Assembly (NCBI RefSeq): GCF_050920415.1
Contig: NZ_CP169309.1
DNA length: 64,000 bases
Direction: 5' to 3' (one strand)
From: Escherichia coli
Lineage (GTDB): Bacteria > Pseudomonadota > Gammaproteobacteria > Enterobacterales > Enterobacteriaceae
Shown here: positions 18,692 through 28,405 of the stretch, piece by piece
Layout: every line of letters begins with the position of its first letter
Numbering within the stretch: the first letter of the stretch is position 1
Position numbers and translations under genes: made by a program
Notes under the pieces: generated by a model
Databases searched by the model: none
The model's input: the letters and a program-made list of their open reading frames with translations, nothing else
Told to the model about the DNA's origin: nothing

Positions 18692-18997
18692 TCAGGCGAG
18701 TTTTGCCTGATTGATTTGACTCAGTGGCTCATTGACATCGAAAACTTTGGCGACAACTTCCTCAACGCCGAGATTTTTCAGTCGGGCAGTATGTTTTTCC
18801 AGATAGGCAAGGGCGCTTTTTTCATCAGTGAAAAGGTAGATCCCACCGGCTTCGTGGTTCTTTTCACTTTCTGTCCATACCTTCCACAGAAAACCAGGTT
18901 CCTGATTAATTGACTCAGCAAGCGGTTTAAGCTGCTCAGCCATTGCGTCGCCAAATGGGCCATTAAAAGCAAAATGAAGTTGTAACAAAGTTGCCAT
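18692..18997 (-). CDS. ydhR: putative monooxygenase-like protein YdhR
   Basis: 101-aa ORF recognised as YdhR. Confidence 0.85.
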
Positions 18998-19104
18998 AGC
19001 GATTCTCCTTCTGATAACGCATACGAAGACAGTGTAAATCTTTTAACGTATTGGATACAGAGAAGAAACAGAGGGAAAAAGGAGAAGACCAGATTAAGAA
19101 AATC

Positions 19105-19181
19105 TGGTGCGTCCGAGTGGACTCGAACCACCGACCCCCACCATGTCAAGGTGGTGCTCTAACCAACTGAGCTACGGACGC
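19105..19181 (-). tRNA. valW: tRNA-Val (anticodon GAC), downstream copy
   Basis: 77-nt cloverleaf with 3' CCA; anticodon loop CTTGACATG; valV/valW naming assigned by transcription order only. Confidence 0.9.
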
Positions 19182-19185
19182 AGGA

Positions 19186-19262
19186 TGGTGCGTTCAATTG
19201 GACTCGAACCAACGACCCCCACCATGTCAAGGTGGTGCTCTAACCAACTGAGCTATGAACGC
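19186..19262 (-). tRNA. valV: tRNA-Val (anticodon GAC), upstream copy
   Basis: 77 nt; same anticodon; differs from the neighbour by compensatory changes in the acceptor and T stems. Confidence 0.9.
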
Positions 19263-19288
19263 AACGTTGTAGGTGACAACGGGGACGA

Positions 19289-19317
19289 ATATTAGCGGCA
19301 GAGTGGGAAGGTGGCAA
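19289..19317 (-). promoter_or_regulatory. candidate promoter for the tRNA-Val pair (-35 ttgcca, 17-bp spacer, -10 taatat, GC-rich discriminator)
   Basis: Read on the minus strand; discriminator tcgtccccg is typical of stringently controlled stable-RNA promoters. Confidence 0.45.
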
Positions 19318-19568
19318 GAGGCAAAACGTATTTTTCTGCGGTATTTCGACCGTTTGCAGAGCTTTTAAGCAAATTGGCTATATTTTGTTGATTTGCAAGG
19401 GCGATTTTTATTCAGGATCGCATTTACATCTGACACAACCCAATAATCTTTATCAGAGTTTAAACAGAGTTGTTTGCCACCATCTCAAAATCTGTCGTGG
19501 ATAAATCCTCCGTAGCCTTTACACTTAGGTAGCAATAAAGGCACACAGATGCAGCAAAGGAATAAATC

Positions 19569-27852: not shown

Positions 27853-27896
27853 TCCATTTCACTCCAGACCCTAACTTCAGCTCCTGCAAAATCGCA

Positions 27897-27912
27897 AGGT
27901 AAACGTTTGCCT
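27897..27912. promoter_or_regulatory. PUR box (aggtaaacgtttgcct) in the purR leader
   Basis: Near-perfect 16-bp palindrome with AAACGTTT core, about 45 bp upstream of the purR start codon. Confidence 0.5.
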
Positions 27913-28150
27913 TTACACACCTTACGCACAACAAAAATGTTGCGGTACGCCGGAAAAACGACACGGAGCGTCAGGAAGGGGTCAATGGCCAGTACGCAAA
28001 TAGTGTAAGCGTGGAATTTTGGCCGATCTTGACGAAAAGGGGAAGTGGTAAAAACACTTATCATTATAAATGACGGGAGATTTTTTCATCACAGTGTGTA
28101 AAAATGCGTAATATCACTTTTTGTGTGGTAATAAAAAAGGAGAAAACTTG

Positions 28151-28240
28151 ATGAGCACCGACCTTAAATTTTCACTGGTAACAACAATTATCGTCCTCGG
28201 TTTGATCGTGGCCGTGGGTTTGACTGCCGCGCTGCACTGA
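28151..28240 (+). CDS. ynhF: small hydrophobic protein YnhF (29 aa)
   Basis: ATG with SD aaggagaaaa; encodes MSTDLKFSLVTTIIVLGLIVAVGLTAALH, a single transmembrane segment; below the ORF-track size cutoff. Confidence 0.7.
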   Translation: MSTDLKFSLVTTIIVLGLIVAVGLTAALH

Positions 28241-28405
28241 TTTCCTCTCGAGGGAGCGCGTTCTCCCTCGCATCTCCTTCCTGTTTGTTAGCAAAATGGC
28301 AAAAGTGTTTTCTCTTTTTGTTATTTTCATTTTTTTGTGATTGCTGTCATGCTTTCGCCACTTTAATGAATATCGCGTAATGACGCGAAGAGGTGGAGAT
28401 AAGGC

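Follow-up and report, generated by a model that had tools for sequence, protein, structure and literature searches.

The region examined here lies on the minus strand at 19105-19317 of the window, by which we mean the whole 64-kb stretch of E. coli DNA that was analyzed, and carries two tandem tRNA-Val(GAC) genes behind one promoter. We identify it as the known E. coli valV-valW operon, which encodes tRNA-Val2A and tRNA-Val2B, with a probability of about 0.97. The features of the region, from upstream to downstream, are as follows.

19318-19342, minus strand: A/T-tract region ACCGCAGAAAAATACGTTTTGCCTC, from -60 to -36 (sequence; partial conservation)
19312-19317, minus strand: -35 hexamer TTGCCA, a 5/6 match to TTGACA (consensus scan, conservation, published score of 5/6)
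19295-19311, minus strand: 17-bp spacer CCTTCCCACTCTGCCGC, of fixed length and with a sequence nearly free of information across taxa
19289-19294, minus strand: -10 hexamer TAATAT, a 4/6 match to TATAAT (scan, conservation, published score of 4/6)
19281-19288, minus strand: discriminator TCGTCCCC, 6/8 G+C, ending in the two mapped starts C19282 and C19281
19263-19282, minus strand: 5' leader of about 19-20 nt, removed by RNase P (sequence and published mapping)
19186-19262, minus strand: valV, tRNA-Val(GAC), the upstream copy, with acceptor GCGUUCA and T stem GUUGG (ARAGORN, Rfam)
19182-19185, minus strand: 4-nt intergenic spacer UCCU (TCCT in DNA), with the RNase P cut at its 3' edge forming the valW 5' end
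19105-19181, minus strand: valW, tRNA-Val(GAC), the downstream copy, with acceptor GCGUCCG and T stem GGUGG (ARAGORN, Rfam)
19088-19108, minus strand: predicted trailer hairpin ACCAGAUU-UUCUU-AAUCUGGU, terminator-like in a scan and by folding
19040-19087, minus strand: C-rich, G-poor, pyrimidine-rich trailer, a candidate Rho-dependent termination region (base counts)

Both gene order and sequence support the identification. A 1.2-kb query taken around the locus found a match in 5425 of 5426 complete E. coli genomes, and the genes annotated under the match are ydhR, ydhQ and two tRNA-Val genes. In the annotation of K-12 MG1655, valV (b1665) and valW (b1666) lie between the divergent ydhQ and ydhR-ydhS, and the window is 100% identical to this strain from the -35 hexamer through both tRNAs to the ribosome-binding site of ydhR; the two differ solely further upstream, at a few positions of the ydhQ-valV intergenic region that include -52 and -42. 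The window thus shares both synteny and sequence with b1665-b1666, including ydhQ in divergent orientation, ydhR and ydhS downstream, the 4-nt UCCU spacer, the promoter scores and the start region, and strain background alone sets it apart from the K-12 operon. Because of this sequence identity, experiments performed in K-12 apply directly to the window. E. coli strain MFDS1022581 is 100% identical to the window across the 1.2 kb. A query of 266 nt, which takes in the promoter, the two tRNAs and the trailer, was recovered at an identity of at least 95% and a coverage of at least 80% in 5424 of the 5426 complete genomes, and at an identity of at least 99% in 4854 of them. Nothing was found that contradicts the identity of the operon or its promoter, and gene identity is backed by the present comparison. 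The name and map position of valV-valW are decades old, and its start site and processing pathway are already in print; the additions of the present analysis are a cross-order promoter footprint, a trailer hairpin and a link between spacer length and neighbor identity.

One genome departs from this picture: in E. coli strain CEC96047, the sole genome of the 5426 with less than 80% query coverage, an IS3-family element lies inside valV (1440-1620 of the retrieved locus), so that the last bases of valV (CACCA) and the TCCT spacer remain and an intact valW is separated from the operon promoter. Elsewhere in the window, the Rfam small RNAs rydB (83 bits) and STnc550 (395 bits) were matched on the plus strand at 917-977 and 27853-28243, respectively.

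The first-pass annotation, made from the sequence alone, had described two 77-nt tRNA-Val(GAC) genes separated by 4 nt, and two independent detectors call both of them on either side of the TCCT gap. ARAGORN reported exactly two tRNA genes on the 64-kb window, both tRNA-Val(gac) on the minus strand with the anticodon at position 35, and Rfam model RF00005, with a gathering score of 29, gave the two genes 69.6 and 70.1 bits. Rfam matches to Plastid-ycf2 and YrlA over the same genes fall below their gathering scores and were rejected as tRNA-like similarity. Each gene is 77 nt long with an encoded CCA and ends in ...GCACCA. Aligned to each other, valV and valW show six differences, at linear positions 5, 7, 51, 65, 67 and 69, which are the two sides of three base pairs and are exactly compensatory.

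Pair 5:69 in linear numbering (5:68 standard): U-A in valV, C-G in valW
Pair 7:67 in linear numbering (7:66 standard): A-U in valV, G-C in valW
Pair 51:65 in linear numbering (50:64 standard): U-A in valV, G-C in valW

The earlier claim that the copies differ solely at paired acceptor and T-stem positions therefore stands, as do the strings GCGTCCG and GCGTTCA quoted for the two acceptors. On the named cloverleaf (7-bp acceptor, 4-bp D, 5-bp anticodon and 5-bp T stems), 21 of 21 pairs are standard in both genes, each of which also has a 7-nt anticodon loop with GAC at 34-36, as in a bacterial elongator tRNA-Val(GAC). Pair counts on this cloverleaf were used as the tRNA test because the minimum free energy (MFE) fold of each single sequence, while recovering the acceptor, D and anticodon arms, missed the T arm; T-arm misprediction is a known weakness of thermodynamic tRNA folding. 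The identity elements for ValRS are the discriminator base A73 and anticodon bases A35 and C36. Both genes carry A73, GAC and the genome-encoded 3' CCA, and the six differing positions leave these bases untouched. Val2A and Val2B have been assigned to valV and valW (PMC3378859) and both carry acp3U47 (PMC6895100), so that both mature species are backed by published experiment; the Val2 pool is reported in the literature to be about 38-47% aminoacylated.

Homologous loci were collected with a pattern built solely from tRNA sequence, by which a single genome of each species was scanned for two Val(GAC) genes separated by 1-30 nt. The scan returned at least 120 loci, mostly from Enterobacterales with a few from Aeromonas, Rheinheimera and Chromatiaceae, and 17 distinct Val(GAC) variants are present among the matches listed. 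Scored against the named cloverleaf, these variants have 99.7% of cells paired and 7 pairs altered on both sides (among the matches listed), with the D and anticodon arms fixed by the search pattern and covariation visible in the acceptor and T stems only. None of 500 shuffles reached the observed pairing values, and sliding the 3' partners by one to three columns reduced pairing to 27-52%; the Val(GAC) homologues thus keep their structure by compensatory change. The valW type is the commonest variant, accounting for 126 of 281 Val(GAC) genes among the matches listed, and occurs in most families. Among the same matches, Enterobacteriaceae are characterized by an upstream partner of the valV type, Erwiniaceae have different upstream partners that are equally compensated, and Serratia, Rahnella, Proteus and Morganella have arrays of identical Val(GAC) copies. 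By this distribution, the two E. coli genes are thus old, maintained isodecoders and not a recent or decaying duplicate. It is very hard to sustain that one copy is redundant and decaying, with stem differences that reflect drift and not maintained structure: valV and valW decode the same codons, and the one strain in 5426 whose valV is destroyed by the IS3-family insertion is evidently viable, but all six differences are compensatory, the tRNA model gives each gene about 70 bits, the two variant types persist in an unchanged order over many Enterobacteriaceae genera (among the matches listed), and mature Val2A and Val2B are both recognized and both modified.

A third tandem Val(GAC) gene, with the compensated acceptor GCGTTTA...TAAACGC, was observed between the valV-type and valW-type genes at ten loci, separated from its neighbors by spacers of 2-8 nt. 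The carriers belong to Klebsiella, Raoultella, Kluyvera, Pluralibacter, Trabulsiella and Pseudocitrobacter.

Upstream of valV, the first-pass annotation had placed a promoter composed of ttgcca, a 17-bp spacer and taatat, followed by a G+C-rich discriminator, and each element was found at its site. TTGCCA/17/TAATAT matches the consensus at 9 of 12 hexamer positions and has a spacer within the 16-18 bp of sigma-70 promoters, and the discriminator TCGTCCCC is G+C at 6 of 8 positions. Mohanty and Kushner (2007) scored the valV promoter at 4/6 for the -10 and 5/6 for the -35 hexamer (PMC2190699). TAATAT and TTGCCA give these same scores, and the promoter read from the raw sequence is therefore the published one. 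The transcription start is backed by published primer extension, which put the two starts on C residues lying "18 and 19 nt" upstream of mature valV and gave no longer product (PMC2190699). Counting upstream from valV, -18 is a G and a C run occupies -19 to -22, with the nearest C residues at -19/-20; from the sequence, the numbers in the paper seem to be shifted by one nucleotide, and the starts would be C19281 and C19282. These mapped starts fall 7-8 nt downstream of TAATAT, in agreement with the promoter as first placed, and with C19282 as +1 the hexamers lie exactly at -35 to -30 and -12 to -7. It is scarcely credible that the hexamer pair is a chance match and that transcription of the tRNAs begins at a promoter lying further upstream within the 307 bp that separate ydhQ and valV: a hexamer scan returned 2 overlapping sites versus 1.2 +/- 1.2 in shuffles, which is not beyond chance alone, but primer extension yielded nothing longer than the products of the two starts some 19 nt upstream, and the hexamers, their spacing and the discriminator are conserved across the order. 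We accept the promoter as real because of the published 5'-end mapping together with this conservation across Enterobacterales.

TAATAT was found within 70 nt of the first tRNA at 104 of the 110 loci with enough upstream sequence (among the matches listed). From these matches, 94 distinct upstream segments were aligned on TAATAT; they range from Escherichia to Proteus and Xenorhabdus and are mostly from Enterobacterales. Because the loci had been retrieved by tRNA pattern only, the resulting footprint is independent of how they were found. Among the matches listed, all 94 segments have TTGNNN exactly 17 bp upstream of TAATAT, as TTGCCA in 61, TTGCCT in 19, TTGCAA in 10, TTGTCA in 3 and TTGCAT in 1, and TCGTCCCC is exact in 81. 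In the same 94 segments the spacer sequence is nearly random except for its last five bases, 'tgcCG', and the distance from the -10 hexamer to the tRNA varies from 13 to 43 nt, the range also given for leader length among taxa. By this alignment, the discriminator itself is under strong constraint. Further upstream, the A/T motif consensus 'agaAAa.tgc..tTTtcc.C' is partly conserved in the 94 segments among the matches listed, and these upstream tracts may provide an UP-element-like contact for the alpha subunit of RNA polymerase. In the window the A tract extends from -53 to -49 and the T tract from -44 to -41, upstream of the -35 hexamer, in the region where -52 and -42 differ from K-12.

Processing of the transcript has been studied in K-12. 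The 4-nt UCCU spacer is without an RNase E site, and the dicistronic valV-valW precursor accumulates only when RNase P is inactivated (PMC2190699). Because precursor builds up solely on loss of RNase P, this enzyme separates the two tRNAs while making their 5' ends (PMC2190699), and its requirement was confirmed in later papers from the same laboratory, so that RNase P processing, too, is backed by published experiment. The gene ydhR downstream does not share a transcript with valV-valW, and pnp rnb mutants show a precursor that is longer by about 35 nt (PMC2190699). The leuQ-leuP-leuV, secG-leuU, valU and lysT operons likewise have short spacers that are not A/U-rich and are cut only by RNase P, and their tRNAs are therefore separated independently of RNase E. 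Unlike valU, lysT and leuU, valV-valW has no Rho-independent terminator according to PMC2190699, while a weak CCA-pairing hairpin was found here.

In this operon, as the cited experiments show, sigma-70 RNA polymerase initiates at two adjacent C residues 7-8 nt past TAATAT and produces a transcript with, in order, a leader of about 20 nt, valV, UCCU, valW and a short trailer. RNase P cuts at the 5' end of each tRNA, accomplishing 5' maturation and separation in one step, and 3' exonucleases, among them PNPase and RNase II, trim the trailer. What results is a pair of isodecoders, tRNA-Val2A and tRNA-Val2B, both with anticodon GAC and reading GUC and GUU, in which three acceptor and T-stem pairs have changed on both sides so that the cloverleaf is kept in both.

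In the trailer a hairpin is predicted, and the unpaired ACCA that ends valW opens its 5' arm. The hairpin has 8 bp, including 3 G-C pairs, with a folding energy of -9.4 kcal/mol (z = -4.2), and 0 of 200 shuffles were as stable. The tract after the stem is CUUCUCCUUUUU (tail CUUCUCCUUU) and not a clean U run. Relatives carry a longer GCACCA...UGGUGC hairpin at the same position, with energies of -14 to -18 kcal/mol and inner pairs that differ yet remain complementary, as located at six of the collected loci and at others. Strong hairpins of this kind occur in Citrobacter, Enterobacter, Lelliottia, Klebsiella, Kluyvera, Pseudescherichia and Trabulsiella; a U run comes after some of them. The predicted E. 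coli hairpin contradicts the published remark of no predicted structure downstream of valW: the authors saw no secondary structure there and assigned termination of valV-valW to Rho (PMC2190699). A literature search on valW and bicyclomycin for direct evidence of Rho dependence found no paper.

The hairpin does not overturn the Rho assignment in E. coli, which stands because the stem is weak, the U run is not clean, the trailer is C-rich and G-poor, and a precursor about 35 nt longer is produced. It is rather improbable that the trailer hairpin, which includes the ACCA end of valW, instead acts as an intrinsic terminator at which transcription ends. Its stability is significant given its composition, it was flagged as terminator-like, and its homologue in Citrobacter, Pseudescherichia and Kluyvera reaches -14 to -18 kcal/mol with a U run directly after it; against this, the E. 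coli stem has only 3 G-C pairs and is followed by CUUCUCCUUUUU. In addition, the pnp rnb precursor exceeds VW1 by about 35 nt even with its 5' leader trimmed, which places its 3' end beyond the approximately +25 expected for the hairpin. The 40-nt windows over the first 60 nt of the trailer contain 11-13 C versus 3-4 G, as in Rho-utilization regions, and Rho dependence is the authors' own assignment (PMC2190699). The hairpin of E. coli could be an intrinsic terminator that has decayed, or else a signal for 3'-end processing.

The same part of the window gave a full-length match on the plus strand to Rfam RF02194, HPnc0260 ('bacterial antisense RNA'), at 18981-19143 with 112 bits; this stretch is antisense to valW in its 3' part, to the spacer between valW and ydhR, and to the opening codons of ydhR. 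We rejected this match as a sign of an antisense RNA: at its 3' end the model has 40 nt that correspond to the T arm and acceptor strand of a tRNA in reverse complement, the antisense strand of valV was also matched at 36.6 bits, and in published data for E. coli O157:H7 (EHEC) the same annotation is untranscribed, with 1 RNA-seq read. HPnc0260 at this position is probably not a real RNA.

Spacer length between adjacent tRNA genes is associated with whether the neighbors are identical. Among the matches listed, 104 distinct pairs could be compared; the spacer is at least 17 nt in 30 of 31 pairs of identical copies and at most 17 nt in 66 of 73 pairs of non-identical isodecoders, an association that is phylogenetically confounded and was drawn from a search pattern allowing triggering spacers of up to 30 nt. 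In equilibrium folding of valW-valW or valV-valV, the 3' acceptor strand of the first tRNA is predicted to form a helix with the 5' acceptor strand of the second at a probability of about 0.97, while in the native valV-valW order the probability of an inter-tRNA acceptor helix is 0.01. The compensatory pairs may therefore not be neutral but may prevent mutual pairing (and possibly recombination) of tRNAs 4 nt apart, which would let RNase P find its sites, an idea from the folding model that we regard as doubtful. The same model predicts homotypic misfolding even with a 20-nt spacer. We rejected thermodynamic folding of dicistrons as a way to test the spacer idea, as Serratia, Rahnella and Proteus naturally carry homotypic arrays with spacers of about 20 nt; since the model misfolds arrays that exist in nature, equilibrium folding is not the whole story. 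Co-transcriptional folding and the concerted evolution of recent duplicates are simpler explanations for the spacer pattern.

The remaining question is how the promoter is regulated. We consider it probable, and hold with fair confidence from its sequence, that the valV-valW promoter is down-regulated by ppGpp/DksA, as the earlier label "stringent-type" implied, and growth-rate coupling like that of other stable-RNA promoters is most likely. Both forms of control are thought likely because the promoter combines a near-consensus -35 hexamer, a 17-bp spacer, a weak -10 hexamer and a G+C-rich discriminator. With 6/8 G+C, TCGTCCCC has the discriminator composition of a stringently controlled stable-RNA promoter. 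Like rrnB P1, tyrT and argX, valV-valW drives a stable RNA from a non-consensus -10 hexamer with a G+C-rich discriminator and A/T tracts upstream of the -35 hexamer. Unlike them, it has a 17-bp spacer, starts 7-8 nt past the -10 hexamer, compared with 9 bp in rRNA promoters, and initiates with C. Haugen et al. reportedly found in 2006 that binding of sigma region 1.2 is disfavored by a C located two bases past the -10 hexamer, the arrangement of rrnB P1, and valV-valW has such a C as well. The rrn P1 promoters have a 16-bp spacer.

These differences from the rRNA promoters bear on an unlikely alternative, that the promoter is real and essentially constitutive, and that its discriminator serves start-site selection, promoter escape or a feature of the leader RNA. 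In favor of this alternative are the 17-bp spacer, where rrn P1 has 16 bp, and the start 7-8 nt from the -10 hexamer, where 9 bp is typical of rRNA promoters. Our literature searches (valV with ppGpp; tRNA promoters with discriminator) found no direct ppGpp/DksA measurement for the valV promoter, the valV and valW genes are not listed in the supplement of a Salmonella ppGpp transcriptome, and prediction from sequence is admittedly unreliable, a 2021 review stating that the response "remains challenging to predict" (PMC9304144). The same review notes that ppGpp-inhibited promoters typically have GC-rich discriminators, which mark such promoters genome-wide (PMC9304144), and the promoter of another tRNA gene, argX (pArgX), is reported as inhibited by ppGpp (PMC5137449). 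Across the order, TCGTCCCC is kept in 81 of 94 segments while neighboring positions drift (among the matches listed). We therefore favor repression by ppGpp/DksA, which is predicted because a G+C-rich, deeply conserved discriminator coincides with the general rule for ppGpp-inhibited promoters.

As the locus is present in essentially all E. coli genomes, it carries little weight for discovery, and its value is that of a positive control in which a reading of the raw sequence recovered two tRNA genes, their compensatory differences and an experimentally mapped promoter. The footprint provides a clean illustration of selection on a stable-RNA promoter, in which the -35 hexamer, TAATAT, TCGTCCCC and a spacing of 17 bp stay constant and the spacer is free to vary in sequence. 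Cheap, testable hypotheses on how packed tandem tRNAs may avoid misfolding come from the hairpin in the trailer and from the association of neighbor identity with spacer length.
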